From the sequence record SRR22947727_2379: a stretch of 32,138 nucleotides of DNA, one strand, 5' to 3'. Made by a program: the position numbers and the translations under genes. The notes under the pieces are model-generated. The model did no database searches and had not been told where the DNA came from. It worked only from the letters and a program-made list of their open reading frames with translations. Positions 201-32,021 of the stretch are shown here, in pieces; the stretch's first letter is position 1, and the number at the start of each line of letters is the position of its first letter.

Positions 201-570
201 CGTCCCGGCAGGGACAGCTCGACGGTAGCCCGGTGCAAGTGAGACACGAACACAGCGGCGGGATCAGATCCGTGCCACCCAAGTCACTCCGGCAGGGGTG
301 ATAGAAGTTTCCGCCGCATCCACCTTCGTTGCACACAGCAGCCATCGGCCCGATTCGATGTCACCGGCATCAATGCGATGTGAACATTCATGGGGTGGAT
401 TTGGGGTGCTGGCGAATCGGATCGGATCTGACCTGGCGGATGGGATTGTTGGCGAAATGGGGGCTGCTATCACCCTTGCCGGGGTGATCCCACGGGTATC
501 GCGGGCGGTCTCGGAGCTGCGCTCGTGCCTCGCTTGCACCAGGCTAACATCTGTCGGTCCTGCCGGGACG
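201..570. mobile_element. REPIN/MITE-like non-autonomous element with 104-bp imperfect terminal inverted repeats
   Basis: Arm 201-304 (cgtcccggcaggga...tagcccggtgcaagtgagacacgaacacagc...tcactccggcaggggtgatag) aligns with the reverse complement of 467-570 (cgtcccggcagga...tagcctggtgcaagcgaggcacgagcgcagc...tcaccccggcaagggtgatag). The inverted repeat is directly seen; mobility is inferred. Confidence 0.6.
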
Positions 571-586
571 TTCCTTGATGATCTGC

Positions 587-1027
587 AATTCCAATCGGAC
601 TGTCCCTAGATTGAATCAGATGACCAGAGGTTGTCATCAGAAGACCAAACGATGCATTTTAACGACCCTGAGTTGCCGTCTGACGACTTCAGATTTTAAT
701 CAGATCATCCAAAGGCGCAGTCACATGTTCACGAAATTGAATCGCACGATTCTTAAATACATTCGAACCAGCCAGAGGTGCAATCAGACAATCGTATGAT
801 TTAATCAGATGACTCGAAGATTTCAACAAATCATCCTTAGGTTTGGTCAGACGATCTTACTATGCTATCAGACGTTCACTAGATTAAATCGGACAACTCT
901 TAGAGTTAAGTTGACGGCTCAAACATTTCTTCAGACGACCAAAAAATTCCGACATATTACTTTGAGATTTAATCCCGCAAACAGAAGACATGTTCGAATG
1001 ACCCTTAGATGCCGTCAGACGATGTGA
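587..1027. repeat. Degenerate tandem array of 21 units x 21 bp, consensus approximately AGATTTAATCAGACGACCCTT
   Basis: Units begin at 587, 608, 629 ... 1007 with no indel. Hand alignment gives position 4 T in 18/21, position 9 T in 18/21, position 10 C in 19/21, position 13 A in 20/21 and position 16 A in 17/21. Confidence 0.9.
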
Positions 1028-2222: not shown

Positions 2223-3917
2223 ATGAGTAAGACTATTATCGTCGGCGCCGATCACGGTGGCTTTGAACTGAAAGAAGCTGTTGTTGCTCACCTGAAAAGC
2301 CTCGGCCACGAGGTGAATGACATCGGCGCGTATTCTGCAGAATCCGTTGATTATCCGGACTATGCGCACCGCGTTGCGGGTGCTGTTGTCGGCGGAAGCG
2401 CTGATCTCGGCGTGCTTTGCTGCACGACGGGCATCGGCATGAGCATCGCTGCCAACCGTCACCCCGGAATTCAAGCGGCTCTGGTAACGGATGTCGAAAC
2501 AGCCGCGACAACGCGAGTTCACAACAATACCAACGTGCTCTGTCTCGCCGGAAATAAGACCGGCCCTGAAGGAGTCCCTGCGCTTCTCGACGCGTGGCTG
2601 GGTGCTGAATTTGATGCCGGTGGTCGCCACGAGCGACGCGTTGGAAAAATCAATGCCTGCGGCGGCGATCTCGATGTGGTTCCTGCGGAACTCGCTGCGG
2701 TGGATCCTGAGATTGCCAAGTGCATTGCGGACGAAGCCAAGCGCCAGCAGAATAACATCGAGCTGATTGCATCGGAGAACTTTGCTTCGAAAGCGATTCA
2801 ACAAGCGCAAGGCAGCTGCCTGACGAATAAATATGCTGAGGGTTACCCCGGTAAGCGTTGGTATGGCGGGTGTGAAAACGTCGATGTGGTTGAAACACTC
2901 GCAATCGAGCGGGCGAAAAAGCTCTTCGATTGCGAATTCGCAAATGTTCAGCCGCATTCCGGTTCACAAGCGAACGCGGCGGTTTACTTCAGCGTATTGA
3001 CGCCGGGAGATAAGATTTTGACGATGGACTTGAGTCACGGTGGTCACCTGACCCACGGTCACTTCGCGAATTTCTCCGGTAAATTGTACGAAGTTGAGCA
3101 CTACGGCGTTTCCGAGGAAACCGGCCGGATTGATTACGATAAGCTGGCTGAAGCCGCGAAGCGATATAAGCCGAAGATGATCACAGCAGGAGCTTCGGCT
3201 CACTCGCGAATCATCGATTTCAAGCGCATGCGTGAGATTGCCGATTCGGTTGATGCTTACCTTTTCGTCGACATGGCTCACATCGCCGGACTTGTTGCGG
3301 CAGGCGTTCACCCGACACCGCTCCCACACGCGCACTTCATCACGACGACGACTCACAAGAGTCTTCGCGGTCCTCGTGGCGGCCTGATTTTGACGAATGA
3401 CGCGGCTTTGGCCAAGAAGATCGACTCCCAGGTTTTCCCAGGTGTTCAGGGTGGACCGCTCATGCACGTGATCGCTGCAAAAGCGGTTTGTTTTCACGAA
3501 GCGCTGCAGGACGACTTCAAAGCGTATCAGGAGCAAATCGTGAAAAACGCAAAAGCGCTCGCGGCAAAACTCGCTGACAACGGTTACACGATTATTTCAG
3601 GCGGAACAGACAATCACTGCTTCCTCGTTGATCTTCGCCCGGCTGGCTTGAATGGAAAAATTGTTCAGGAAACGCTCGATGAAGCTGGAATCACGGTGAA
3701 TAAGAACTCGATTCCATTCGATACCGAAAGCCCATTCAAAGGCGGCGGAATCCGAATCGGATCTCCTGCAGTGACGACTCGCGGCATGAAAGAAGCCGAC
3801 ATGGAACAGATTGCTGATCTGATTCACGAAGCGATCACCAACCGCGAAGACGATGCCAAACTGGATTCGATTCGCGAGCAGGTGGCCGTAATCAATGAGC
3901 GATTCCCGCTCCCGTAG
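2223..3917 (+). CDS. glyA: Fusion of ribose-5-phosphate isomerase B (aa ~1-146) and serine hydroxymethyltransferase (aa ~155-564)
   Basis: RpiB motifs [32 protein letters not shown] and [12 protein letters not shown] motifs [54 protein letters not shown] and [14 protein letters not shown] (PLP lysine). One uninterrupted frame. Confidence 0.96.
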
Positions 3918-12345: not shown

Positions 12346-15300
12346 ATGAAACTGATTTCGAAAATTACTCTGGCTCTATTCGTCTGCGTGGCAGCGACCG
12401 GCCTATCTCAAGATGAGCCATCAGCAGCTGAAAAAAAGGCGGCTGATCTCGAAGCCAAACTTCGGCAGACGTTGGAGTCTTCGGAAGAAGGGGCGCGGGT
12501 GCTTCTGGAACTGGTGGATTTGTATTATGTGGAGGGACAGGTCTTTGGACTGGTGCGCTCGGGCAAGACGTTCGTGACTGTTCAGGTCGGGCACCCCCGC
12601 CATGAAGAGATCATGGGGAAGTTGATTGATGGACTGGCAATCGCTTCTCGAAATTCAGATTTGAAAGCGAACATTTTGCAATTTGTGGATCGCTATCCCA
12701 ACTCGAAGCGAGCCGCCGAATTTCACCGAATGCTGGCACAAGTATTGGAGCGGGAGGGGCAACGGCGCGACGCGGCAGATCACTATCGGACTTCATGGGA
12801 AAAACGCGGGGTTGCTACTGGAGCGGGGGATGCGGAGAAAGCTTTTAAGCTCTACGCGGATCTGCGGAGTGAGGTGACGGCGAAAATTATGGGGGAGATG
12901 GCGCTGAAGTTGTTGGATCAGCTGCCGGCGAATGTCTCAGCGGGGCAGTTTGGCATGGCTGCGGTGTATCAGACGCGGACTTATGGGGGTCAGTATGCGC
13001 TGAGCAATCAGGTGGGGGCAAAAATCATCACTAAAAAGCTGCCGTTGGTAGATCGGCAGGCGTGGGAGGTTCACAGCTGGATGGGGGATAATTTCCGGAC
13101 GGAGAAGCAGTATGCCAATGCGATTCAATCGTATCGGCAGGCGATCGCGAAAGGCACGGACTACCATGAGACGCATCGGAATCTGATTCGTTCGCTCTAT
13201 GATTCGCAGGCGGCCCAGGGGGATTTGGATAAGGCGGTGAATGATTATCTGCGGGCGTTTCCGGAGGAAACGGTGGCTCGCAAAGCGGAGATGAGTGTGC
13301 TGATGGCACTGTCTAAACAGCGTGCGGGGGATGTGAACGGTGCGCTGGCGATCTTGAATCAGGTGTTGCGGGAGCATGCCTCTACGTCGGCGTATCTTTT
13401 CTCATGGACGGAGGAGGAGCCGTTGTGGAAACGGGCGGAGCAGATTTATCAAGATGCGGCAAAGCAGAATCCTGAGGATGTGCATCGGCTGCATTATTCG
13501 GCTGCGTTTTCGCTTTACCGGGATCGGCTGAAGAATGACGGGGCGGCCAAAAATCTTTTGCGCGGTCATATTCTCTACAAGTCGCCGCTGCCGAATGCGG
13601 GCAATGAATTCCGGGTGGCGTTGGATTGGATTCTCGACACGGCGGCAAATGACGGGGAGTTTCAGAATGAGATCCGCAAGCATTTTGATCACGCGAAGAA
13701 GAACGGGCAAAATCAAAATTACTCGAAGGCGGTGGAGCAATGGCTAGCTGAAGCAAAGCGGTCGAAAGAGGATGTAATCAAGAACCGTTATCGCTGGGCT
13801 CAGGCTGAGTATGCGAAGTTTCGCAAGGATCCTACGCTGCGACTGTGGGAGTCGGCTTTGCAGAACCGGATGAAGGGGCACGGGGCTCGAGAGCAATTGC
13901 TGAAAACGAATCTGATGGTGGAGCAGCGCAAGCAGTTGCTGGCGCTTCATGCGTATGACATCCGGACGTATGGCGATTCACGGAAGCGAAATGAGTCGAT
14001 CCCGTTTTATGAGCAGTTGGCGAAGTTGGATGCGAAGGATTATGTAAGCGGGAAGGCATGGGTGGAGGTGGCATCGGGCTATGGGGACGTTGCTCAATGC
14101 AAAGCTGCGTTGGAGCACTTGCTAAATCTGGATCAGACGACGCAGGACGCGGTTGGTTGGTATCATGCATCGAACGCGGCGCGGAAATCGGAAGACCCGA
14201 CGCTGCAAAAGCGGGTATTGGATTGGATCCGGAAGAATCAGCAGCGGGTGGGGGCTTCGAATGCCTACGCGGGAACGATCATAGGGAACTTGCGGGCGAT
14301 GGAGTTGGAGGCTGACGCGGTGGCTTACATGAATGAAGCGGCGAAGCGTGATCTGAACTATTCGGATACACAGACGGCGGTGCGGGGGCTTTTTGAACTG
14401 CAAGAAGAGGGGCCGGCGCGCATTAATTTTTTGAAGCCGTATCTGGCTCAGTCGAGTGACAACCACGGGCACTATGCCAGTTGGACCGCGGATGAATATT
14501 TGAAGCTGGGTGATTTCGCTAACTTTGAAAAGGTTTGCCGTGAGGCGCGGAAAACTCAGAATGGGCGTCGGCTCCGTCCCTGGAGCTTTTATGGAAATGC
14601 ATGGGTGAGCCATGCGCTTGCCAATGAGGAGTGGACTGCCGAGCAAAAGGAGCAGGTTTACCGTGTTGTTCGAGATATGAATTATGGTCGTGATAGCGCA
14701 CTCGGCGAGATGGCTTTGCTGGAAGTCGAGGGGTTTAACATGAAGCCTGTCGAGCGACTGCTCGCTTACCGAACGGCAACGATTGAGGTGCAAAAGGATC
14801 AGACGAGTTACAACTATTTATTCCCATGGGCGCAAAAGGCAATGGGGCGCGATGAGTTTGCTGAGGCGGCTGCTTTGGCGACAGGGTTGCTGGCGAATAT
14901 TGATAACATCGGCGTGGATACAAAGGGGAAAACCCGATCGCTGATTCGTGAGGCTTATGGAAAAATGGGGGCACTCGGGATGGAGGTCAATGCGGATAGC
15001 CCGATGGCACCCTTGCTGGAAATCGGTCTTCATTTACGACTCGGCGATCGAGAGCGAGCGCTTGAGGCTTACACCGAAAATCTAAAACGTTTTGACGAAT
15101 TTGTATTGGAGTTGCCATCCGAATTGGTTGCGTTCGCGGCAGATTCCCACACTACGGCTGGAGGTGAACAGAATTACGATCGTGCCGAATCCATCCTTCG
15201 AAAATGGATGGTCGCTCACAGCGAAAGCGAGAAATTCTCAGATTCAGAGAAGGCTAAAATGCAGCTTCTCCTTGCGAGAAATTACGACCGCGCCAAGCGC

Positions 15301-18300
15301 TTCGAAGTGGCTCGGAGCGAATACACTACGGTGGTAAATCGCTACCCTGAAACGGAAGAAGCCGTCGAAGCTCGTTTCGGCATTGGTGAAACCCAAATGG
15401 CGCAGAAGATTTTTGACCAGGCGGAGGAGACTTTTTTAGATCTCTCAAACAACCCGATTTCTAAAGTTCGCATTCGGGGAATGTTTCTCCTCGGAGTGTT
15501 GGAAAGCCGAAAAGGAAATACGGAAGATGCGCGAAAGATTTTCAAAGACGTTCTGAGTTCGATGCCGGATGTCTCTCTCGCGAACGAAACCCTGTTTAAC
15601 CTGGCGGAGGTTTACGGCGGCGAACAACGGTATTTGGACCAGCTGAATTTGCTCCGCACAGTTGGACGCTTGGGACAGGAATCAAAGCGCTGGCACGAGC
15701 CGGGACGCGCCCTTTCAATTGTTGTTCAGGATTCCGATTTGGGAATCAGTCGCGGCCATACAAAAATCCCCGTGCAGGTGACAACGGTTCCGGGCGGCGA
15801 TCGTGAGATGGCTCACCTTTCATCCGGCGGAGCTGGCAAGGGACTTTTCATTGGGGAAATCGAAACCAGCCTGGGATTGGCGCAGGCTGAAAACGGAGTA
15901 CTCGAAGTTTCCGGAAACGATTTGATCAAGGTCGATTATCCGGAGGATTTTAAGAATGAGTTTCAATTCAATCCCCTGGCCACCGGTGATATCGGAATTG
16001 CAATTGACGCAGAGTTCACGATGGCCAGTTCCCAAATCGTCGATGAAGAAGTCGAAACCGAAGCCGAGCGAATTGCGCGAGAAGAAGCGGAGGAAGGCGA
16101 TTTGCGTCAGTCAATTCAGCGCCCGCAAAATGAAATCAAACCCGGAAATCCGATCTACCTTCGCGTCACCGATCTTGACCGCGATATTTCCGGAGAGGCT
16201 GATGAAGTGATGGTGAAAGTGACAGCTTCAAGCGGAGACGAAGCTCAAGTGATTCTCCGTGAAACCGGATCGCATTCCGGAATTTTTGAGGGATCGGTCG
16301 ACTCGAGCGATCTGCCGGCGGGGGCACTGGCCACGGACACTGCAATCGAACACAATCCGCTGATGGCAATCGACAAAGATCCTGCGTCAGCTTGGGTCAG
16401 TCAGCCCGATGGGCTCACACCGAAATGGTTGTCTGTTGATTTGAAAGAACTGCGGACGGTTTCGAAGGGAACGTTCACGACCCCGAATCCACTGGATCAA
16501 GCGCCGGTCCGCACAAGGCTGCAAGGAAGCCATGACGGACGATTCTGGTATCCACTCGCCGAACATCCGCAACGCGAGACCGCGGAAAAACCTGCGGGTG
16601 ATTTCAAACGGATGACTCAACGCCTTTGGCACAGTCGAAATGCGTCGGCCATCACCAATTGGCAGGAAGTGATCAAGCTCGCAAAAAGTCAGCCGCCCCA
16701 TGAAGAATCTCAGCCCGATGAACTTCACTACAAAACTGAAATTCCCATTGATGCAGAAGAACGACGAAAGCGAAAAGCCGATCCCTGCGGTGTTATTTGG
16801 CAGGGCGCTTTCATTCAACCGCGAGATGGTGCCGTGCGATTCGCTATTTCGGGCCAAACAGCTGGTGCCATGATAGATGGCCTGCTGATTCAGCCTATCG
16901 TCAAAGTTCAGCGTCAGGTGGAACTTGATGTCTATCTTGAAGCCGGGCTCCACGAAGTGATTTTCTTTGCTTCGACAAGCGATTCGGGCCGCCGGCCCAT
17001 CGGAGTGTTGAGAACCCGCGAGAATCCAAATACCAGCCAAGTTCGACTGACTCGATTCGTGCCGGAGGATTTTGATTTGAATCAGGCCTTTGCTGCCGAT
17101 CTGAAACCGGCGGGCAACTATCCACTCGGCACAATGTCGGCTGATGACGAAGGAAAATGGGAATTTGGAATTGAGCCCCGCGAGCTTCGTCACGTGCGCA
17201 TGGTGATCGACGAATATGTAGGCCAGGCCGTTGCCATCAACTCTGTTACCGTGGCAAGCCCTAAGGACCAATTTATTCCGACCGAACAGGATTTGATGCA
17301 GCTCTCCAGCAACAACATTCTTGAAATCACTCCGGGGGATCAACTCGAATCGACCTACATCGATGAACTCCCAACGGGTGGTGAGCCTAAAAATCGCGCT
17401 CTCTCAGAACGACTCAACGCCACGTATTACAACGGCTCAATCACCCCGATCGCCTACGACTTCGTCAGAAATAGCAACGGCACGGTTGAAGAGACCGAGA
17501 AAGACCTGCTACGAATTGATCCCGGAGAACGTATCACGCTGGAGATCGTAGATTTTGATTTGGACTCCACCGGCCAACGAGACAAAGTGCCAGTGAAGGT
17601 TCAGATTGGTGATGGAGCTCCCGTCGAATTATTTGCGACGGAAACCGAATCCACCTCGGGTATCTTCAAAACGGAAATCGATACGTTTGATCCCAACGCA
17701 CCGGTAGCTGAAGTGAAGCCGGAAATTGCTTCTGAAGATGGAGAGACCGAAGAAGAAGAAGACGCGGAAACAGATCCCGCGCCTGAATCCGATCTGCCAA
17801 AACTAGCCATCAAATCGGGAGACCAGATTTACTTTACCTACCGAGATCAAGAGAACACCTTTCCCGGCCACGCGATCGATCGCGATGCGGTGATTTATGT
17901 TCGAGAACCAACGGCAGGGCGTTTTCGAATTCTTGAAACCCGCGTCACACCTCCACAAACTGAAGGTGCTCAATCAAAAGTCACCTTTTCGAATTCGGAA
18001 AGCGCAGAAGGAGTAATCAAAGGGGTCGCTTATGACGTTCCGCTTACCGTTGAAGTCATTGATGAAGATGCAGCGAGAGATTCGCGCTCCGAAGTCACAG
18101 TTTCACTGACTCTCGCAAACGCTCCCGAAGGAACCGAACCCGTTAAGGTCGCCTGCCGAATTTCGGCGGCTCATTCAGATCTCGACGACTCCCTTGCGCA
18201 GGTTCGGAACCCGGCGCTGCATCAAGGCCGGTTTGTAGGGCAAGTCACCATGCGTCTTGGGGGATCCAACAGTCCCACATTGATTCCCCGCGCTCCTGGA

Positions 18301-19716
18301 GTTTCAGCAAATGCGTTGATCGGTCGAGTCTTGCCTGTAGACGACTCTGAAACGATCGAGGACGGCTTGATTGGAGTTCTTAACCTCACCGGTGCCGACA
18401 CGATCCAAGGGTCTTACATCGACGAACAGACCCTGCCTGAGCGTGAAGCTATCCTGTCAGACAGAGCGCGCATTCTTGGAAACGGCTCACTCGCGGCCAC
18501 CGATAGCGCTTACGAGGAAGTCGTGGAAAAGCTGCAGGTTGGCGAGCGCTTGTATTTGCGATTTTCCGATGCAGATAAAGACATCACCGACGAACGCGAT
18601 AAAATTGATGTCGCGGTCGAATCCGCCAATGGAGAAAAAGAAACGGTGCCACTTGAGGAAACGCTCAATCACAGCGGCATTTTTACCGGGTCTTTCAAAC
18701 TAAAGGCCGTGCCGCAGCCCATCCCGGGGAATTTTGACCCCACCTCGCCAGAGCTGGAGGCCTTCTTCGGCCAGGCAATGATCGCAAAATACACCGACGA
18801 TCGTCCGGCAACCCCGGACGAGGCCGCGGTTCCCCACGTTACCGAAATTCCCGTGTCAGATGGAACCGACGGCGATCTCGCTGCATTCACCAAAATATTT
18901 GGCGATGAAGATTTAGCAATTCAGACCCAATTTCATATCGCAGAGAGCTTCTTTGAACTCTTCAAGAGCCACTTGGAATTGGATCGAAAAGAAGAAGCCG
19001 ACACGGATTTGGAAAACGGACGACGGGTTCTGAAAGAGCTTCAAGAAGACTATCCCGATCCAAAATATGCGGCCCGCGTTGCCTATCTCCTTGGGCAATT
19101 TGCTCAGGAATTAAAAAACTGGGACGAGGCAATCGAGGCTTACGAAACCATCGTGAAACAGTATCCTGATCACACCCTCGCCGCAGACGCACAATACAAA
19201 CTGGGACAATGCTACGAGGAGGCGAAGCGACTTGATGAAGCTCTTGAGGCCTATGTGACTCTGGCCGCGACGTACCCGGAAAATCCGCTCATTTCAAATG
19301 TGATGATTCGGATCAACGAGCATTTCTACGTGCTTGAAGAATTTGAAGTCGCCGCGCAGGTCGGAGCGAAGTTTCTTGAGCGATTTGAGAACCATGAATG
19401 GGCTCCCCGAATGGCTTTCCGGGTCGGGCAGTGTTTTTACAAAGACGAGAAATATAAAGAAGCGGGCCTCGCCTTTGATGATTTTGTGAAACGATTTCCC
19501 GAAGACGACCTTGCCGGCCAATCGCTGTTTTGGGCGGGGGAAAGCTATCGCCAGGGCAATAACGTTCCCTTCGCCTTCCGGCGCTACAATCGTTGTCGCT
19601 GGGATTTCCCCGAATCCGATGCCGCAAAATACTCCCGGGGCCGATTAGCGCTGCCCGAAATGCTCGCTCAATTCGAGCGCGAAGCGCAAAATGTTGATAT
19701 GGAGGAGAATCAATAA
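12346..19716 (+). CDS. Giant (2456 aa) exported TPR protein with about five beta-rich repeats and discoidin/PA14-like inserts
   Basis: Signal peptide MKLISKITLALFVCVAATGLS/QD. Helical and TPR region to aa ~1115, and C-terminal TPRs (EDYPDP, KQYPDH, ATYPEN, KRFPED, WDFPES). Repeats of the form G-x-x-[IL]-x-[LI]-x-[VF]-x-D-x-D-x-D...ET-x-x-x-SGIF. Confidence 0.88.
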   Translation: MKLISKITLALFVCVAATGLSQDEPSAAEKKAADLEAKLRQTLESSEEGARVLLELVDLYYVEGQVFGLVRSGKTFVTVQVGHPRHEEIMGKLIDGLAIASRNSDLKANILQFVDRYPNSKRAAEFHRMLAQVLEREGQRRDAADHYRTSWEKRGVATGAGDAEKAFKLYADLRSEVTAKIMGEMALKLLDQLPANVSAGQFGMAAVYQTRTYGGQYALSNQVGAKIITKKLPLVDRQAWEVHSWMGDNFRTEKQYANAIQSYRQAIAKGTDYHETHRNLIRSLYDSQAAQGDLDKAVNDYLRAFPEETVARKAEMSVLMALSKQRAGDVNGALAILNQVLREHASTSAYLFSWTEEEPLWKRAEQIYQDAAKQNPEDVHRLHYSAAFSLYRDRLKNDGAAKNLLRGHILYKSPLPNAGNEFRVALDWILDTAANDGEFQNEIRKHFDHAKKNGQNQNYSKAVEQWLAEAKRSKEDVIKNRYRWAQAEYAKFRKDPTLRLWESALQNRMKGHGAREQLLKTNLMVEQRKQLLALHAYDIRTYGDSRKRNESIPFYEQLAKLDAKDYVSGKAWVEVASGYGDVAQCKAALEHLLNLDQTTQDAVGWYHASNAARKSEDPTLQKRVLDWIRKNQQRVGASNAYAGTIIGNLRAMELEADAVAYMNEAAKRDLNYSDTQTAVRGLFELQEEGPARINFLKPYLAQSSDNHGHYASWTADEYLKLGDFANFEKVCREARKTQNGRRLRPWSFYGNAWVSHALANEEWTAEQKEQVYRVVRDMNYGRDSALGEMALLEVEGFNMKPVERLLAYRTATIEVQKDQTSYNYLFPWAQKAMGRDEFAEAAALATGLLANIDNIGVDTKGKTRSLIREAYGKMGALGMEVNADSPMAPLLEIGLHLRLGDRERALEAYTENLKRFDEFVLELPSELVAFAADSHTTAGGEQNYDRAESILRKWMVAHSESEKFSDSEKAKMQLLLARNYDRAKRFEVARSEYTTVVNRYPETEEAVEARFGIGETQMAQKIFDQAEETFLDLSNNPISKVRIRGMFLLGVLESRKGNTEDARKIFKDVLSSMPDVSLANETLFNLAEVYGGEQRYLDQLNLLRTVGRLGQESKRWHEPGRALSIVVQDSDLGISRGHTKIPVQVTTVPGGDREMAHLSSGGAGKGLFIGEIETSLGLAQAENGVLEVSGNDLIKVDYPEDFKNEFQFNPLATGDIGIAIDAEFTMASSQIVDEEVETEAERIAREEAEEGDLRQSIQRPQNEIKPGNPIYLRVTDLDRDISGEADEVMVKVTASSGDEAQVILRETGSHSGIFEGSVDSSDLPAGALATDTAIEHNPLMAIDKDPASAWVSQPDGLTPKWLSVDLKELRTVSKGTFTTPNPLDQAPVRTRLQGSHDGRFWYPLAEHPQRETAEKPAGDFKRMTQRLWHSRNASAITNWQEVIKLAKSQPPHEESQPDELHYKTEIPIDAEERRKRKADPCGVIWQGAFIQPRDGAVRFAISGQTAGAMIDGLLIQPIVKVQRQVELDVYLEAGLHEVIFFASTSDSGRRPIGVLRTRENPNTSQVRLTRFVPEDFDLNQAFAADLKPAGNYPLGTMSADDEGKWEFGIEPRELRHVRMVIDEYVGQAVAINSVTVASPKDQFIPTEQDLMQLSSNNILEITPGDQLESTYIDELPTGGEPKNRALSERLNATYYNGSITPIAYDFVRNSNGTVEETEKDLLRIDPGERITLEIVDFDLDSTGQRDKVPVKVQIGDGAPVELFATETESTSGIFKTEIDTFDPNAPVAEVKPEIASEDGETEEEEDAETDPAPESDLPKLAIKSGDQIYFTYRDQENTFPGHAIDRDAVIYVREPTAGRFRILETRVTPPQTEGAQSKVTFSNSESAEGVIKGVAYDVPLTVEVIDEDAARDSRSEVTVSLTLANAPEGTEPVKVACRISAAHSDLDDSLAQVRNPALHQGRFVGQVTMRLGGSNSPTLIPRAPGVSANALIGRVLPVDDSETIEDGLIGVLNLTGADTIQGSYIDEQTLPEREAILSDRARILGNGSLAATDSAYEEVVEKLQVGERLYLRFSDADKDITDERDKIDVAVESANGEKETVPLEETLNHSGIFTGSFKLKAVPQPIPGNFDPTSPELEAFFGQAMIAKYTDDRPATPDEAAVPHVTEIPVSDGTDGDLAAFTKIFGDEDLAIQTQFHIAESFFELFKSHLELDRKEEADTDLENGRRVLKELQEDYPDPKYAARVAYLLGQFAQELKNWDEAIEAYETIVKQYPDHTLAADAQYKLGQCYEEAKRLDEALEAYVTLAATYPENPLISNVMIRINEHFYVLEEFEVAAQVGAKFLERFENHEWAPRMAFRVGQCFYKDEKYKEAGLAFDDFVKRFPEDDLAGQSLFWAGESYRQGNNVPFAFRRYNRCRWDFPESDAAKYSRGRLALPEMLAQFEREAQNVDMEENQ

Positions 19717-19770: not shown

Positions 19771-20460
19771 ATGATTCCATCCTCATTCCTCGATTCCGGC
19801 GCCCTCGGCCTGCTCCTTCAAGGCGGCATTTTCATGGCGCCGATCTTGATCCTCGGCATTCTCGCCGTGGCAGTCATCATCGAACGATACCGGAGCCTGA
19901 AAATTCTGGATTCACGTTCCGAACAAGTCCGCCACGCAGTCATTGATGAATTAGCCGAAGGAGATATCGAGAAGGCTATTGAAGTTTGTGAGAATTCACA
20001 GGGTCCCGTTGCTGCTGTCATGGGGAATGGGTTGCGCAAATATCTCGTCCTGGAAGAACTCGGCTACGAACCTGCACGAATCGAAGAGCAGGTTACCAAG
20101 AGCATGGAAGCTTACGGAGTTCATGTGGTGGCCGCATTGGAGCGTCACCTCCCGATTCTCGCAACGGTTTCCAGCGTTGCCCCGATGCTGGGGTTTCTCG
20201 GGACCGTTCAGGGAATGATTGTTTCTTTTGCCAATATTGTTGAAACGATGGGGCAAGTGAACATCGTTGAAGCAGCTGCGTCCGGAATTCAGACCGCTCT
20301 TTTGACGACTTGCTTTGGACTGATTGTCGGAATTCCCGCCTACATGGGGTTCAATTATTTCATGAGCGTTATCAACAATTTTGTCCTCGAAGTTGAGCAA
20401 TCCGCCGCTGAATTGATCGAAGCGGTTTCAGTTCAACTCACTCTCGCATCGAGGAAGTGA
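19771..20460 (+). CDS. exbB: MotA/TolQ/ExbB proton channel family protein
   Basis: TM1 ending VIIERY, then APMLGFLGTVQGMIVSF and GIQTALLTTCFGLIVGIPA. Family-level assignment only; ExbB cannot be distinguished from TolQ by eye. Confidence 0.92.
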   Translation: MIPSSFLDSGALGLLLQGGIFMAPILILGILAVAVIIERYRSLKILDSRSEQVRHAVIDELAEGDIEKAIEVCENSQGPVAAVMGNGLRKYLVLEELGYEPARIEEQVTKSMEAYGVHVVAALERHLPILATVSSVAPMLGFLGTVQGMIVSFANIVETMGQVNIVEAAASGIQTALLTTCFGLIVGIPAYMGFNYFMSVINNFVLEVEQSAAELIEAVSVQLTLASRK

Positions 20461-20470
20461 TTTTATTCCA

Positions 20471-20893
20471 ATGATGGTTCAACGTCGCAAACTCCTTGTT
20501 GATCCGCCGGCCACGGCAGCGCCGGATATTGCGTTTATTTTGATCATCTTTTTTCTGGTGTGCGCTTCCGTTCAGCCGGATACCGGTCGACCGCAAAACA
20601 TTCCACGCAGCGAAGAAACACCGGAAAAAACAGCTGAAACCAAAAACGTCGAAATTTCGATCACGGAAAAAACAATCCTGGTGAACGGGGAACTGCTTCC
20701 GCTGGGCAATTTGAAAACGAAAATCAGTCAGCTACTCGCGGGCAAAGAATCCGATTCTGACCGCGTGATTTTGGTCAAGACAGCTGATGATGCGACCTAT
20801 CAGCGCTGGATCGATGTCACCAGCGCGATCGAAAGCGCAGGGGGAATCATCACGATCCAAATGGAACAGGAAGAAGTCCAAATCGTGAATTAA
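20471..20893 (+). CDS. exbD: ExbD/TolR family biopolymer transport protein
   Basis: Single TM helix with conserved Asp (PDIAFILIIFFLV) and periplasmic domain ILVKTADDATYQRWIDVTSAIESAG. Directly follows the ExbB-family gene. Confidence 0.9.
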   Translation: MMVQRRKLLVDPPATAAPDIAFILIIFFLVCASVQPDTGRPQNIPRSEETPEKTAETKNVEISITEKTILVNGELLPLGNLKTKISQLLAGKESDSDRVILVKTADDATYQRWIDVTSAIESAGGIITIQMEQEEVQIVN

Positions 20894-28070: not shown

Positions 28071-28940
28071 TCACTCCACGTTCTGAACCTGCTCGCGAAT
28101 TTTCTCGAGCTCCGTTTTCGCATTCACAATTCGTTGCGCAATTCCCGCATCGTTCGCCTTGCTGCCGATTGTATTGAATTCCCGATTCAACTCCTGACAC
28201 AAAAAATCAAGCGGACGCCCCACCGGCTCATCACTGGAGAAGTAATTCCGAAATTGGGTGACGTGACTCGCAATTCGGGTCAGTTCTTCTGAAATATCTG
28301 ATTTCTCGGCAAAGATCCCGATTTCACGAAGCACTCGCTCATCGTCCAAATCGAGTCTCTCCAGCCCGCCATCGCGCAGCCGCTTAAAAAGTGACTTCCG
28401 GTAGTGCTCTACCACCGATGGCCCGATTTCTGAAACAAATCCAATCTCGGACTCAATGGTATTTATCCGGTTTTCTAAATCTTCACGAAGGTGAGCCCCT
28501 TCTACTTCCTGCATCGCAGACAACTCGGATAATGCGAATTCCACCGCAGCGGTCAATGTGCCGCGAAGCTCCGCTGGCTCGACGGACGCGTCTTCGACTC
28601 TAAAAACTCCGGGTGCTCGAAACAAATCCGAAGCGGTGACCTCGGCATCAGATCCGAGCAACGCTTTTGCTGCGGCCACGTATTCGGCAGCCAGTGATTC
28701 ATCGATCGAAAGCTGGCTTTCGCCGGATTCTCCATTCGTCAGAACGATCCGGGCATTGATTCGGCCCCGCGAAATCGCTGCTGTCAGCTGCTTGCGTACA
28801 TCACCTTCGAGCTCATGCAGCCGATGAGGCAAATTGATGGCGAGATCGATTTGCTTTCGATTCACGCCTGAAAGCTCCACCGTCAGCGTCCATTGTTCCT
28901 CAGTCGCTTCGCCGCGACCAAAACCAGTCATGCTTCGCAT
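28071..28940 (-). CDS. yicC: YicC/YloC family endoribonuclease
   Basis: MRSMTGFGR start, ISRGRI, DISEELTRIASH, GRPLDFLCQELNREFNTIGSK and EKIREQVQNVE end. Confidence 0.95.
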   Translation of the reverse strand: MRSMTGFGRGEATEEQWTLTVELSGVNRKQIDLAINLPHRLHELEGDVRKQLTAAISRGRINARIVLTNGESGESQLSIDESLAAEYVAAAKALLGSDAEVTASDLFRAPGVFRVEDASVEPAELRGTLTAAVEFALSELSAMQEVEGAHLREDLENRINTIESEIGFVSEIGPSVVEHYRKSLFKRLRDGGLERLDLDDERVLREIGIFAEKSDISEELTRIASHVTQFRNYFSSDEPVGRPLDFLCQELNREFNTIGSKANDAGIAQRIVNAKTELEKIREQVQNVE

Positions 28941-29061: not shown

Positions 29062-29310
29062 TCAATCATTCTCGTCACTCGCTTCAGAAATCTGCTGAAG
29101 GGCAGTGATGAATTCTTCCAATACTTCGCTTGGCACCATGATGGTGTCGCGACGACCGCGAACATCTTCGGTGATTTTTACAAAACGACCCCGGTCGTTT
29201 TCCTTCAGGTCGAGAAAAAAGATTTTGCGATCAGCAAAGATTTTTTCTGTGTGGATCGGATAATTGTCCGAACGCCGTCCGTTGTCTTGGTCTTCTTCGT
29301 AGCCTATCAT
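29062..29310 (-). CDS. PUR-repeat (Pur-alpha-like / DUF3276-type) nucleic-acid-binding protein
   Basis: IHTEKIFADRKIFFLDLKENDRGRFVKITE...RRDTIMVP...LEEFITAL matches the single PUR repeat pattern (K-x-F-[FY]-x-D-x-K-E-N-x-R-G-x-F-x-x-I-x-E). Confidence 0.85.
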   Translation of the reverse strand: MIGYEEDQDNGRRSDNYPIHTEKIFADRKIFFLDLKENDRGRFVKITEDVRGRRDTIMVPSEVLEEFITALQQISEASDEND

Positions 29311-29609
29311 TTCTGTATTTTCATCTAACCTCCTGTTAATAAGATTTGCGCAGAGAAAGCAAAAGTCACCTACGCCTTTTTATTTCGTGTGAATTTCTGT
29401 TTTATCACGCAGATTTTGTAGCGGCAAGACACCGGAAAGGCGCATTTGCGTTCATATTTTTTGTTACAGGATCGGTACGCCGCATCTTCGCGGACCCACC
29501 ATCGCGCAGATCACTTTACGCATCTTTGCCGAATCGTAAAATCAGGCTAGGTTCGCGGCCTCACCAAAAATCTTCTTCACCTTACTGTGAACTTTAACGA
29601 CTCATTCGC

Positions 29610-31484
29610 ATGCTCTTAAAATCCGCTTTTGAAAAACTCTTCAAAATTCGGGAAGAAGCTGGCCGCGCCCGAAAAGAAGGTTCCGGTGCCGACGCAGGCT
29701 TCGACCCCCACGAGAAACCGTTTCTCGAACACCTTGAGGATTTGCGCAAAACATTGATGCAAATGTTGGGCACGCTGCTTGTGATCACGATTTTCACGTT
29801 CGTGTTCAACCAACAAATTTTTGATTTCGTCCTGCTCCCGCTGAAAGTCGCGATAATCGATGACTCGGGAACGCGCCTTTATGACGTAGCCAATCTCCTC
29901 ACGCTGAGCCCGCAGGAAATGCTGATGCTGGCAATCAAGACGTCGTTCATCGCCGGATTGATTTTGGCATTTCCACTGCTCGTTTATCAACTATTTCAGT
30001 TCATTTTACCTGGCTTGCGTCAGGTAGAAAAAAAAATGGTCATTCCCGGAGCGCTCATAGGATTCCTGCTTTTCCTTGGCGGAGCGTCCTTCGCCTTCTT
30101 TCTGGCATCGCCAATTGCCCTGAAATTTTTCTACGAATTCGAACAAGAACGAGTCGGCTCAATTGACCCTTCAGTCGAAGCTCTGAAACGGCCGATTGCG
30201 GAATTTACTCTCATCGGTCTCGATGGAAAACCCATTCCGGTTGTTGGCGAAGAACCAGCCGATCCGCCACCTGAAGGCGAAACGGCCGTGCAAGAAAACC
30301 CCATTAAGCCAGTCGAACCTGCCGTTGCGGTAGTAGAATCGACACTCGATGAAGCGACGAAAAAAGAGGTTCGCGATTATATCCTGAGCGTTTTCGCCTT
30401 CCGGGAAGGGTCCGAAATCGCGCTGCGATATGATGAAACCCGCGACAAAGTGATCATCTTAAAAGTGAAGGGCAAAACGACCGAGTATCGGATGGGCGAT
30501 TACATCAACTTCGTCACACGATTGGTATTGGTGTTCGGAATCAGCTTTCAACTGCCGGTTGTCGTCACGATTTTGGTAAAACTTGAGCTTCTCACCGCTC
30601 GCGTGATGCGCGCAACTCGAGCCTACGCGTGGGTCATCATGATGGTGGCAGCGGCGATCTTTACTCCGCCAGATATTTTGACTCTCGGCCTGCTCGCTGG
30701 CCCGCTGATATTCCTTTATGAAGTCTGCATTGTCATTGCGACGGTGATGGAGCGTGGCCGCGCGAAAAAAGAACGTGCCCGCGAAGAAGCTCGCAAAACC
30801 CGACTCGAAAAACTTTACGAACGCAAAGCAGAAGACCTCTCGGAAGAGGAGAAGGCTGAATTGCACAAGCATGAGATCGAGCAATACGAGAAGGAACACG
30901 CTGATCTCCACGACGACGATCACGCCGATAATCCGTATGCAGATCCCTATCATAATGACCCGTATCACGACGAATACGGGCATCCGATTGATGACCCGCA
31001 TGCGAACGATCACAAAACGGGCGATGATCACGATCATCCGGAACATGATGAAAGTTGGACCGATGATCATCACCACGATGAACACGGCAATCCCGATCCT
31101 CACCACGGTGAGGACGAGCACAAGCCGTTTCAGGATTGGCCGGATCGCGAAGATGGGGATGATGCGGATTCAAAACCGGATGCGGATGAGGACAAACCTG
31201 TTCTCGAAAGCGATCACGCTGAGCCAACTGAAGTAGATGAAACCAACGACGACCACGAGCATGATGAATTCGATGACGAAGAAGTCTGTGCGCCAAGCGG
31301 TCCGATTGTGGATTTGAATCACTCCGATTTCGAAGAAATCATGAACCTTCCAGGAATGGACGAAGAACTCGCTCAGATGATTATCGACCACCGTCCTTAT
31401 GATTCGTTCGACGATGTCGAAGACGTTCCCGGAATGGATCCTGATCGATTGGCCGATATGATTGAACGCCTCATGCTTGGATAA
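29610..31484 (+). CDS. tatC: Twin-arginine translocase subunit TatC with a large loop insertion, a His/Asp-rich tail and a C-terminal helix-hairpin-helix domain
   Basis: TatC motifs PFLEHLEDLR, YQLFQFILPGL...EKK, FGISFQLPVV, AAIFTPPD and PLIFLYE. Length is 624 aa versus roughly 250 aa for a typical TatC. Confidence 0.92.
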   Translation: MLLKSAFEKLFKIREEAGRARKEGSGADAGFDPHEKPFLEHLEDLRKTLMQMLGTLLVITIFTFVFNQQIFDFVLLPLKVAIIDDSGTRLYDVANLLTLSPQEMLMLAIKTSFIAGLILAFPLLVYQLFQFILPGLRQVEKKMVIPGALIGFLLFLGGASFAFFLASPIALKFFYEFEQERVGSIDPSVEALKRPIAEFTLIGLDGKPIPVVGEEPADPPPEGETAVQENPIKPVEPAVAVVESTLDEATKKEVRDYILSVFAFREGSEIALRYDETRDKVIILKVKGKTTEYRMGDYINFVTRLVLVFGISFQLPVVVTILVKLELLTARVMRATRAYAWVIMMVAAAIFTPPDILTLGLLAGPLIFLYEVCIVIATVMERGRAKKERAREEARKTRLEKLYERKAEDLSEEEKAELHKHEIEQYEKEHADLHDDDHADNPYADPYHNDPYHDEYGHPIDDPHANDHKTGDDHDHPEHDESWTDDHHHDEHGNPDPHHGEDEHKPFQDWPDREDGDDADSKPDADEDKPVLESDHAEPTEVDETNDDHEHDEFDDEEVCAPSGPIVDLNHSDFEEIMNLPGMDEELAQMIIDHRPYDSFDDVEDVPGMDPDRLADMIERLMLG

Positions 31485-31499
31485 TGTCCAAACGATTTC

Positions 31500-31530
31500 A
31501 CAGGGCGCTTGCACGACAGCAGCGCCCTGT
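31500..31530. terminator. GC-rich hairpin after tatC (possible terminator or stabiliser)
   Basis: acagggcgct / agcgccctgt perfect 10-bp stem. The T tract (ggcatttt) is offset and weak. Confidence 0.45.
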
Positions 31531-31541
31531 GGCATTTTCAT

Positions 31542-32021
31542 ATGGCTCCTGTTTTTCAGAAATTCCTAGTCGTCTTTGCATTGCCATTAGCGGACCGGTG
31601 GGTGCAGCATCAGGAAAAAAAGATTCTGAACGAAGGCCGTGAACTTTCAGAATGGGAAGTCGATTGGGCTCACGACGTTGGCGTCATGGATGTCAGCCGC
31701 GTTCGCATTGCGATCGTTCCCGAGGTTCCCACTCCGGGTTCTGCACCATTGCAATTTTTAGCAAAATTAGTCGGACTCTCGATGAAAGCGTCAGGCATGG
31801 CGCTTGGCCACGGCATTTACGTTGAAGCCATCAATGCTACCAACCCCTCGCTGATCGTTCACGAGCTCGTCCACGTTGCTCAATACGAACGCCTCGGCGG
31901 GATTCGAAATTTTCTTCGCGAATATCTCATCCAATGCCTCCGCGACGGCTACTGGGATGCGTTTTTGGAACGTGAAGCTCGCGAATTGGCACTGAAATAC
32001 GCTCGTCCTCCAGAGCGTTAA
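31542..32021 (+). CDS. Hypothetical protein with HExxH zinc-metallopeptidase-like motif (DUF4157-like)
   Basis: GMALGHGIYV...LIVHELVHVAQYERLGG...FLEREAR. The ATG at 31542 is preferred over the TTG at 31509, which lies inside the hairpin. Confidence 0.75.
   Translation: MAPVFQKFLVVFALPLADRWVQHQEKKILNEGRELSEWEVDWAHDVGVMDVSRVRIAIVPEVPTPGSAPLQFLAKLVGLSMKASGMALGHGIYVEAINATNPSLIVHELVHVAQYERLGGIRNFLREYLIQCLRDGYWDAFLEREARELALKYARPPER

Follow-up and report, generated by a model that had tools for sequence, protein, structure and literature searches.

A lineage-specific long form of TatC with a histidine-rich acidic cytoplasmic tail and a terminal helix-hairpin-helix domain in aquatic Verrucomicrobiales

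The window considered here (the whole stretch of 32,138 nucleotides that was analysed) carries near its 3′ end an intact single ORF which, by the ORF list and its translation, encodes a TatC of 624 aa; its parts are collected in Table 1. The Pfam TatC model PF00902 matches at 192.4 bits against a cut-off of 25.1 (1.1e-56), with the match falling in two stretches, and the NCBIfam TatC model TIGR00945 matches at 169 bits (cut-off 132.7). In the nearest genome (G001, 95% complete), one PF00902 locus is present and is the sole tatC found there, accompanied by two ordinary PF02416 genes in tandem (tatA/B, 60 and 90 aa). The organism has this one TatC, which is the receptor for signal peptides and forms the core of the Tat export machine; here it takes a lineage-specific long form.

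Table 1. Position and basis of the features of the long-form tatC gene in the window.
Feature	Residues	Position	Strand	Basis or content
tatC, long form		29610..31484	+	one ORF, 624 aa plus stop codon
N-terminal cytoplasmic region	1-49	29610..29756	+	amphipathic helix and motif G-A-D-x-G-F/Y-D, then PFLxHLxDLR
TatC core, first part, TM1-TM3	40-180	29727..30149	+	Pfam stretch 40-180, profile positions 1-131
Insert in second periplasmic loop (TM3-TM4)	182-297	30153..30500	+	segment separating the two parts of the TatC match
TatC core, second part, TM4-TM6	298-380	30501..30749	+	second stretch of Pfam and PDB matches
Charged helical stalk	381-437	30750..30920	+	model helices 356-404 and 412-437, pLDDT ~90
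Disordered polyanionic His-rich region	438-559	30921..31286	+	pLDDT <50; net charge; conserved motifs
C-terminal (HhH)2 domain, ComEA/PsbU (HHH_3) type	560-624	31287..31481	+	Pfam, PDB and fold match

A sequence-only reading of this locus had described a TatC fused to a His/Asp-rich tail and a helix-hairpin-helix (HhH) domain, and that architecture is borne out, with Pfam matches to TatC, HHH_3 and PsbU inside one ORF. The reading had also named a case that would undo it, in which the tail is a separate ORF attached through an assembly error. This is contradicted by a 15,825-nt contig from an independent metagenome study, which covers positions 29500-31600 with seven substitutions and no indels, and by the relatives, since PF00902 and PF12836 (HHH_3), the very combination that the reading had proposed to look for, occur together in 118 of the 120 best database relatives listed. 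Moreover, a second independent contig crosses the junction of TM6 and tail, and of the 90 TatC ORFs in fetched loci, 71 show the same single frame, one of them in a chromosome-level record of 5.26 Mb. An assembly or frame error joining two genes is thus next to inconceivable, and nothing in its favour was found in the contigs, fetched loci and relatives examined. Contigs from two metatranscriptome libraries also cover the tail. Strain differences in the gene are mostly synonymous (7/11), and those within the tail are non-synonymous in two of three cases, both at unconserved positions. A real, conserved long-form TatC is almost certainly what the locus encodes.

In its core, the protein is like canonical TatC (E. 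coli; Aquifex aeolicus, 4B4A/4HTS; the TatBC cryo-EM structures 9DZZ/9E01), with the six-helix core, the HMM matches, equivalents of E15 and E103, and TatA/B partners. Hydropathy blocks and model helices agree on six TM helices (TM1-TM6), the first core part, which aligns to the TatCs of Aquifex and E. coli, is modelled with pLDDT mostly 83-96, and the whole core fold matches 4b4a (Foldseek E 1.4e-8, TM-score 0.87 on target), with 9e02 and 9e01 matching likewise. D44 and E140 align to E. coli E15 and E103, respectively, the acidic residues of the twin-arginine recognition site; both are invariant in the relatives' alignment. E103A served as the transport-inactive control in PMC13323110 (available text). 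The charge bias of the flanks (C1 +2, C2 +2, P2 -10, and +5 at the tail start, over its first 25 residues) fits the positive-inside rule, and from hydropathy, charge bias and model helices we infer that both ends of TatC are cytoplasmic. The tail would be kept on that side because no further hydrophobic segment follows TM6 (maximal 19-residue hydropathy beyond residue 381, 0.26), in agreement with the cytoplasmic C-terminus assumed at the outset.

Outside the core, the protein is unlike canonical TatC in several respects: it has 624 aa rather than ~250, ~35 additional residues at its N-terminus that include a conserved GADxGF motif, a periplasmic insert of ~115 aa, and a cytoplasmic tail of 244 aa with a folded domain. 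The N-terminal region is modelled as a helix at residues 2-24, followed by the GADxG[FY]D motif (G26, A27, D28 and G30 invariant in the alignment of relatives) and directly thereafter by PFLxHLxDLR, the signal-peptide-binding segment. The motif is present in the main HhH-bearing clade and in relatives L090/L091, and absent in L075-L077 and in HhH-less TatCs. Its co-occurrence with the HhH domain is a lead only, as L075-L077 have the domain without the motif and the other lineages share common descent.

The periplasmic insert, which was absent from the sequence-only description, splits the TatC match (query 177-294, against ~10 residues in E. coli). Both models show it as partly folded (pLDDT 65-87; mean 65.3 when modelled by itself), with a small alpha/beta module surrounding a Pro/Glu-rich segment that is disordered, and R255, Y274, D275, Y293 and G296 are conserved in the relatives' alignment. 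Comparison with 48,161 chains by VIA-align gave a best Z of 2.1, so there is no fold match, which is not evidence of a new fold. Large periplasmic-loop inserts also occur in the atypical TatCs of Nitratifractor salsuginis (9E02) and Myxococcus xanthus (9E03), which still form TatBC trimers, and the family profile matches both (9.1e-49 and 8.9e-37, respectively). The additions in those two proteins are periplasmic, and no cytoplasmic C-terminal domain, His-rich chain or HhH is seen in what the available text of PMC13323110 gives of them.

The tail as a whole has a net charge of -62. Its first part is a charged stalk, in which the TM6 helix is modelled as extending to residue 404, with a turn at 405-411 and a second helix at 412-437 bearing a His/Glu/Tyr stripe (H419, E422, Y426, H430). 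The stalk contains 27% Glu and 27% Lys plus Arg. No other part of the tail is so well conserved, and many stalk residues are invariant (L402, E414, E417, E422, Y426, E427 and H430, with H419 at 98%). The charged helix that the sequence-only reading placed after the last TM helix is present, as a conserved helical hairpin; the start given there, position 30790, does lie inside the charged helix (residue 394), and the tail itself begins earlier, at residue 381 (base 30750). All four of the sequence strings that it quoted are present, at residues 442, 472, 485 and 567, and its ~23 His in ~140 aa compare with 22 counted in residues 420-560 and 25 in the tail (381-624).

Between the stalk and the terminal domain lies a chain for which the model gives pLDDT <50 at residues 439-449, 464-505 and 511-559. 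Residues 436-559 have a net charge of -45 and 15.3% His, against 1.7% His in 19 other ORFs from the same window, in which 11 is the maximum for any segment of 124 residues; over 97 relatives, the median His content is 14% in the disordered region vs 1.1% in the core. Short conserved motifs punctuate the chain (HDESW at 479-483, DPHH at 496-499, QDWPD at 508-512 and ESDHAEP at 533-539), and individual columns are strongly conserved, including H479 (92%), D480 (100%), W483 (99%), H489 (90%) and H536 (92%). The 13 columns with a His consensus have a mean frequency of 0.71, nine of them at 0.7 or above, as compared with 0.47 for the 42 Asp/Glu-consensus columns (one-sided Mann-Whitney p 0.003, with columns and sequences non-independent). 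Finally, C560 is invariant, as part of an equally invariant C560-x-P562 motif that precedes the HhH domain.

Histidines conserved by position, together with an invariant cysteine, would be the pattern expected of a metal-binding segment, and judging from the sequence, metal binding by the tail in vitro is about an even prospect. The His enrichment might just as well act in pH sensing or have no specific purpose. The metal buffer or proofreading arm that the sequence-only reading proposed would be a candidate role, as would binding of a protein by the HhH domain. The tails of SlyD, HypB and UreE and the loops of CDF/ZIP transporters are His-rich and bind metals, and by composition the chain may be likened to them as a disordered His/Asp/Glu-rich segment on a working protein. 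Unlike the SlyD, HypB and UreE tails, it extends from a protein translocase, is much more strongly acidic, and has a folded domain at its end, and Pfam, profile and phmmer searches gave no sequence relation to His-rich tails of this type. Outside long-form TatCs, nothing related to the disordered region was detected, and it matches neither a family nor a structure (Pfam, profile, phmmer, ESM Atlas), so what speaks for metal is its composition and positional conservation. The phmmer search with the region alone (436-559) against 1.84 billion representatives yielded 0 matches at E<=0.001 and is uninformative because of composition filtering, with even the known relatives being missed; ESM Atlas, queried with residues 405-624 and with PF00902 left out, gave no usable match.

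The terminal domain is confidently modelled (pLDDT ~95) and is matched by HHH_3 (PF12836; 3.5e-8, 33.9 bits vs a cut-off of 27, residues 566-617) and by PsbU (PF06514; 1.3e-8, 35.2 bits vs 24.5, residues 556-610), with the PsbU equivalog NF002708 (31.4 bits vs 85) and the ComEA subfamily TIGR01259 (14.6 bits vs 152.35) remaining below their cut-offs. Its PDB sequence matches are led by PsbU (8wql, 3.5e-9) and include the ComEA-related 2duy (2.7e-6), with which its fold superposes at an rmsd of 0.8 A over 55 columns (38% identity); the best solved matches of the family profile are EEPD1 (5.9e-13), 2duy (2.9e-11) and ComEA (8dss). The domain is like the ComEA (HhH)2 (2DUY, 8DSS) in its fold and in an SGPVDLNHA entry motif common to the ComEA-like proteins of family f1, to part of which the long form is limited, and a ComEA-type module of the lineage itself is its most likely source. 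It is unlike ComEA in that it ends a cytoplasmic tail, whereas ComEA's sits outside the membrane behind an N-terminal anchor, and in its net charge of -14, with acidic residues in place of the Gly-x-Gly hairpins and the Lys that follow them. A second likeness is to PsbU, the extrinsic 12-kDa subunit of photosystem II, in having an acidic HHH_3-clan domain. In PsbU, the HhH-type domain serves protein contacts, not DNA. Unlike PsbU, the TatC domain is no free lumenal subunit and has no photosystem context, and the fold TM-score is ~0.5 on target.

The sequence is PGMDEEL in the first hairpin of the window's domain and PGMDPDRL in the second, as against PGIGPKL and PGLGPEKL in most relatives; both Gly-x-Gly hairpins are degenerate (GMD, GMD), and the lysines are lost. 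Among 97 relatives, both Gly-x-Gly hairpins are kept in 50 and neither in 23, 86% have a Lys or Arg after hairpin 2, and each hairpin has switched state at least nine times on the tree, often to an acidic G-x-D-E-E. The net charge of the domain ranges from 0 to -14 (median -6) and is positive in none of the 97, as compared with -1 to +3 in ComEA-like paralogues of the same family (n=4) and -3 to +1 in nuclease-HhH paralogues (n=4); because these paralogue charges overlap those of the least acidic TatC domains, charge is decisive on DNA binding only for strongly acidic domains such as the window's. Since all 97 domains are neutral or acidic and the hairpins have switched repeatedly, DNA binding is probably not the conserved role of the domain, with relatives that have canonical hairpins and charges of -2 or -3 as possible exceptions. 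The statement that the usual basic residues are acidic thus applies to the window's sub-lineage and fails elsewhere, and the suggestion of an HhH domain repurposed away from ComEA-type DNA binding fits the lost hairpins, lost lysines and charge of the window's lineage.

The tails of the 120 listed relatives have 184-290 aa and 11-29 His, and their disordered part varies in length and sequence, leaving many gapped columns in the alignment. The feature is beyond chance: its composition and domain recur in all 120 of these relatives; the conservation that had been put forward as a check is seen, with motifs and Cys invariant, and an unconserved tail is not what was found. The family f1, to part of which the long form is confined, belongs to the Verrucomicrobiales and is mostly uncultured. 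Within f1, the TatC is this form, with the split match, in 56 of 81 genomes at least 90% complete, and a tail-only search gave matches in 84 of 119 genomes. No standalone or split tail was found among proteins of 30-342 aa; there were six short matches only, which are taken as fragments because none of their contigs exceeds 2,323 nt. TatCs of related families and genera carry acidic disordered tails of 83-173 aa without HhH and with few or no His (L078-L085, L087, L089, L093, L094), acidic tails without His occur in Prosthecobacter and Verrucomicrobium, and His/Tyr-rich tails without HhH occur in genera g156 and g157. Acidic-aromatic motifs are found on both sides, with DDWDNENYNPW in HhH-less tails and QDWPD and HDESW here. 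The acidic, His and HhH features can thus occur apart from one another, and it may be the polyanion that is primary. As for the neighbourhood, PurA-like and YicC genes lie divergently upstream with conserved synteny at 47 of 80 loci, in the core subclade only and not in other HhH-bearing lineages, and a downstream 170-aa ORF recurs in 1/80; no functional link was drawn from these 80 loci.

In solved Tat core complexes, three copies of TatC surround a cup whose opening faces the cytoplasm, with TatA/TatB placed between the copies of the trimer (PMC13323110, available text). As TatC is trimeric and the cup opens to the cytoplasm, three tail arms would hang beneath the docking place of twin-arginine signal peptides, each passing from a rigid charged stalk to a polyanionic disordered chain of ~120 residues with conserved His, Trp and one Cys, and then to the folded (HhH)2. 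Such an arm could act as a capture or regulatory tether, in which His/Cys/Asp/Glu sites may take up divalent transition metal ions or be titrated as pH changes, altering the charge and compaction of the chain, and in which the terminal HhH would attach to some partner in the cytoplasm, which in the window's lineage would be a protein and not DNA. A complex prediction for TatC 1-440 with HhH 556-624 scored 0.00 in both runs, made without alignments, and speaks neither way on binding. Taken as a whole, a metal- or pH-tunable polyanionic arm with a docking domain at its tip, placed below the cytoplasmic mouth of the Tat receptor, is favoured tentatively, at somewhat below even likelihood. An extension of it, in which the arms are a cytoplasmic sensor and gate whose metal or proton binding alters their reach or compaction and, through the HhH and the GADxGF motif, opens or blocks the signal-peptide site, so that export of folded proteins with their cofactors is directly coupled to metal or pH state, is improbable as it stands.

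It is conceivable, if rather unlikely, that the arm is purely electrostatic or steric, a polyanion that attracts, decoys or auto-inhibits basic twin-arginine signal peptides or excludes unsuitable material, with metals playing no part and the His and HhH being secondary additions. The charges of tail and chain given above would suit such an arm, as would its position beneath the cytoplasm-facing cup, the site of signal-peptide binding (PMC13323110, available text), and the HhH-less, His-poor acidic tails with acidic-aromatic motifs on related TatCs. However, His columns are better conserved than Asp/Glu columns, and charge fails to explain an invariant Cys and a well-folded end domain kept clade-wide. 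That end domain could instead make the arm a DNA or nucleoid tether, with the (HhH)2 binding dsDNA and linking the Tat receptor to the chromosome, an activity lost or weakened in the window's lineage. The profile's best solved matches are indeed DNA-binding HhH proteins (EEPD1, 2duy, 8dss), and the 2duy-like fold, the 50/97 relatives with both Gly-x-Gly hairpins and the common Lys/Arg after hairpin 2 point the same way, but no domain is net positive, both hairpins have switched repeatedly, the attached chain, with a median net charge of ~-38, would repel DNA, and the window's own domain, at -14, has no Gly-x-Gly hairpin; such a tether is improbable.

The stalk and/or HhH might also form an assembly or localisation module that holds TatC copies together, binds TatA/TatB or positions the complex, with the chain as a mere linker. 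The stalk is the best-conserved and a well-modelled (pLDDT ~90) part of the tail, the clade in which the HhH arose is also the one that gained GADxG[FY]D, and TatA/TatB lie between the TatC copies of the trimer (PMC13323110, available text). Against this, the TatA/B of the nearest genome are of ordinary size, L075-L077 have the HhH without the motif, kin share both by descent, and a simple linker would not hold His at fixed positions, which leaves a module of this kind with little likelihood. Smaller still is the chance of a tolerated lineage-specific decoration without specific function, arising from low-complexity expansion and a captured domain. The variable length and gapped alignment of the disordered part and the non-synonymous tail differences at unconserved positions (2/3) would be in keeping with it, and E. 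coli-type TatC functions without any comparable tail. Yet the tail is kept on the only TatC in 56/81 near-complete f1 genomes, its motifs and Cys are invariant, its folded domain is intact, and the tail has no standalone or split form beyond the six short matches on contigs of at most 2.3 kb.

To our knowledge, TatC is treated as a compact receptor of ~250 aa without regulatory parts, and we know of no Tat system with regulation built into the translocon. A search of the open-access literature on TatC, Tat and HhH gave no description of a TatC C-terminal domain. Term searches were likewise negative in the available text of PMC3827258, where "C-terminal", "extension" and "fusion" are absent, and in that of PMC10197872, PMC13323110 and PMC13186574, where no such domain is described. 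The literature searched contains no account of the long-form TatC, a natural variant of familiar machinery.

An entire clade of aquatic Verrucomicrobiales thus depends on one TatC with a folded domain, a stalk and a His-studded polyanion below the signal-peptide docking site. The TatC inserts of N. salsuginis and M. xanthus were chosen as cryo-EM fiducials (PMC13323110, available text), and the extra folded masses of the long form could be natural fiducials as well. Moreover, the switching between GIGPK and G-x-D-E-E offers a natural series for studying the role of an HhH domain after DNA binding is lost. Should metals, substrates or chaperones prove to bind the arm, Tat export would gain a layer of control or quality checking that is lacking in model organisms, and if the sensor and gate reading were true, regulation would lie within the protein translocon itself.

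The gene of interest is a long-form tatC whose product matches TatC (1.1e-56, in two stretches) and, toward its C-terminus, both HHH_3 (3.5e-8, residues 566–617) and PsbU (1.3e-8, residues 556–610) in Pfam, and it scores 169 bits against the NCBIfam tatC equivalog (cut-off, 132.7). Its core is alignable with the TatC proteins of Aquifex and E. coli, with E140 corresponding to E. coli E103 and D44 to E15, and superimposing the AlphaFold core on 4b4a gave a target TM-score of 0.87. All defining features that a sequence or model can display are present, and the gene belongs to the TatC family. Moreover, the genome nearest to the window (G001; 100% of the window's sampled words in common, 95% complete) possesses a single PF00902 locus, which is the long-form tatC gene; its two tatA/B genes are ordinary ones (60 and 90 aa) and lie on a different contig. 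The long form is the host's working TatC.

A sequence-only reading had described this protein as TatC fused to a His/Asp-rich tail and an acidic helix-hairpin-helix (HhH) domain. The four peptide strings on which it drew occur at residues 442, 472, 485, and 567; histidine is found 22 times in residues 420–560 and 25 times in the tail (residues 381–624); and residues 436–559 contain 15.3% His, 27% Asp, and 13% Glu (net charge −45), versus a mean of 1.7% His and a maximum of 11 His per 124-residue stretch in the 19 other ORFs of the window. The observation therefore holds, and the Pfam domains bear out the HhH end, the last 65 residues of which have a net charge of −14. The start of the tail, placed at base 30790 by that reading, is corrected here to residue 381 (base 30750).

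Features of the long-form tatC gene and its product
Feature	Residues	Nucleotides	Strand	Remarks
Long-form tatC		29610–31484	+	Single open frame, 624 aa
Periplasmic insert (P2), TM3–TM4 loop	182–297	30153–30500	+	~115 aa; splits TatC match; overlooked by sequence-only reading
TM6 extended as helix	to 404		+	Model; then a turn
Second stalk helix	412–437		+	Model, pLDDT about 90
Disordered region	439–559		+	Model, pLDDT below 50
Compact end domain	560–624		+	Model, pLDDT about 95

An assembly join between TatC and a separate tail ORF is contradicted by a 15,825-nt contig from an independent study, which spans 29500–31600 with seven substitutions and no insertions or deletions, and by the co-occurrence of PF00902 and PF12836 in 118 of the 120 relatives listed among 525 matches (E 0.001 or better) in a search of 5.8 billion clustered proteins. 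The TM6–tail junction (30328–30984) is also bridged by a contig of a second sequencing run, and contigs of two metatranscriptome libraries, in which DNA carry-over is possible, span 30744–31487 and 30814–31541. The 11 strain differences comprise seven synonymous changes and four replacements, all four at unconserved positions. That the tail is an artefact is next to impossible. Among the 120 best matches, named relatives are all Verrucomicrobiales or Verrucomicrobiota, and lengths are 550–700 aa with one exception. This exception is P0006, a 417-aa fragment with 85% identity to the window TatC: a bacterial contaminant in an animal genome record, it is listed in the assembly of the isopod Idotea baltica with the flag UNVERIFIED_CONTAM.

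The AlphaFold model (mean pLDDT 74.7) was built on an alignment of 97 of 121 proteins, following removal by eye of 22 near-duplicates and two fragments. Beyond residue 381, hydropathy reaches at most 0.26 over 19-residue windows, and the first 25 residues of the tail have a net charge of +5; the topology of TatC together with the positive-inside rule thus predicts a cytoplasmic tail. Invariant positions in the 97 relatives include L402, E414, E417, E422, Y426, E427, H430, D480, C560, and P562, plus N570, L580, R595, and R620 in the HhH part, while H419, H479, W483, H489, E533, S534, D535, and H536 are conserved at 90% or more. Short conserved motifs include HDESW, DPHH, QDWPD, ESDHAEP, and C-x-P.

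The end domain is an HHH_3 clan member by HMM and fold. In sequence searches, the window's domain matches PsbU best (8wql, 3.5e-9), with the ComEA-related 2duy second (2.7e-6), and the fold of 2duy fits at 0.8 Å over 55 columns; the structures nearest to the family profile are EEPD1 and 2duy. The domain is unlike PsbU proper in being the C-terminus of a TatC, with the PsbU models split (Pfam above its cut-off, NCBIfam below), and ComEA proper is rejected on hairpins, charge, location, and equivalog score. Most relatives have the hairpins PGIGPKL and PGLGPEKL, the window has PGMDEEL and PGMDPDRL, and Gly-x-Gly is kept in both hairpins of 50 of the 97 relatives and in neither hairpin of 23. On a FastTree tree of columns up to residue 437 (core and stalk, without the disordered region and HhH domain), each hairpin changed state at least nine times, often converging on G-x-D-E-E. 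HhH net charge among the 97 ranges from 0 to −14 (median −6). Genomes of the same family (loci L096–L103) encode small membrane-anchored ComEA-like proteins (net −1 to +3, n = 4) and nuclease–HhH fusions of roughly 300 aa (HhH net −3 to +1, n = 4), the nuclease part of which reads as staphylococcal-nuclease-like. The anchored proteins and the TatC tail domain have the motif SGPVDLN(H/Q)AS in common, and since the entry motif SGPVDLNHA is shared, the TatC domain was probably derived from the lineage's own ComEA module.

In a phylum-wide sample of 301 genomes, TatC was matched in 263, and among the 150 matches listed (405 more were obtained) the tail was covered in G001 only. An order-wide sample of 401 genomes was queried with residues 407–624, and family f1 gave matches in 84 of its 119 genomes, mostly in frames of 544–739 aa. 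Matches listed for other families (13/119 in f2, 33/118 in f3, and 13/38 in f63) covered the HhH part only, mostly in frames under 400 aa. At completeness of at least 90%, all 81 f1 genomes have TatC, and 56, from seven genera, have the split long form. Nearly all records are metagenome-assembled genomes; the title "Verrucomicrobiales bacterium BCK34" carries no such mark.

The HhH is present in 71 of 90 TatC ORFs from fetched loci, and three of the 19 without it are truncated by a contig end. Prosthecobacter and Verrucomicrobium TatCs possess acidic tails of 112–118 aa that contain DDWDNENYNPW and hardly any His; in genera g156 and g157 the tails are acidic and His/Tyr-rich, with terminal Lys/Glu repeats; L075–L077 and L090–L091 combine short His-rich tails and a divergent HhH without the P2 insert; and in an Akkermansia-like TatC the chain continues for only about 30 residues beyond TM6. 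With such differing feature sets, the tail parts are separable. A search for a standalone tail protein found none, the six short matches all coming from contigs no longer than 2.3 kb. Large inserts occupy differing periplasmic loops of Verrucomicrobiales TatCs (loci L085, L087, L089, L092, and L094 among them, besides the window): the long-form clade has its insert between TM3 and TM4, an Akkermansia-like TatC shares a TM1–TM2 location with genera g153, g155, and g164, and L090 and L091 have a TM1–TM2 insert of a different type. Structure comparison of the window's P2 insert, for which the model is mediocre, gave no fold match. Databases label the long-form relatives plainly as TatC, and in the portions available of the literature outside subscription journals, no TatC with a cytoplasmic domain, His-rich tail, or HhH fusion was found.

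Divergent from tatC lies a gene (29062–29310, −) for an 82-aa PurA/PUR-alpha-like single-stranded DNA/RNA-binding protein (PF04845, 6.5e-11). Together with YicC (28071–28940), it holds this position in 47 of 80 related loci, all in the core subclade, which gives no grounds for linking the gene to the HhH tail. A 170-aa ORF (31509–32021, +), with an HELVH (HExxH-like) motif and no Pfam match, starts 25 bases past the tatC stop codon, and its homologue adjoins tatC in one of 80 loci (L027). Elsewhere, a 564-aa ORF (2223–3917, +) joins ribose-5-phosphate isomerase B (PF02502, 5–143) to a full serine hydroxymethyltransferase (PF00464, 158–534), and a 2456-aa protein combining TPR repeats with an F5/8 type C (discoidin) domain (12346–19716, +) is directly followed by ExbB and ExbD genes (19771–20893).

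Several roles for the tail can be weighed. In its disordered part, the 13 His-consensus columns have a mean frequency of 0.71, versus 0.47 for the 42 Asp/Glu columns (one-sided Mann–Whitney p 0.003, columns and sequences being non-independent), and it is unlikely that the tail is a purely electrostatic antenna or decoy for signal peptides. The conserved role of the TatC HhH is other than ComEA-style DNA capture, an activity that is very unlikely for the window's domain, and a nucleoid tether is improbable. A role as an assembly or localisation module is quite doubtful. Finally, tail conservation goes beyond composition, and very little probability attaches to a tolerated decoration.

The best-supported reading, a tentative one that goes past anatomy, topology, and conservation, is a flexible, metal- or pH-tunable polyanionic arm with a terminal docking domain. 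In PMC13323110, the TatC trimer is described as an inverted cup opening to the cytoplasm, with substrates held by their signal peptides only, and naturally occurring TatCs that bear large periplasmic inserts are reported to assemble into this complex all the same; three copies around this cup would therefore place three tails below the docking site. Suspended there, each tail could act as a flexible polyanionic arm carried by a rigid stalk, with position-conserved His and Cys allowing metal ions or pH to tune the arm's charge and compaction; the chances that the tail binds metal in vitro appear even. At the tip of each arm, a docking domain would receive a cytoplasmic partner.
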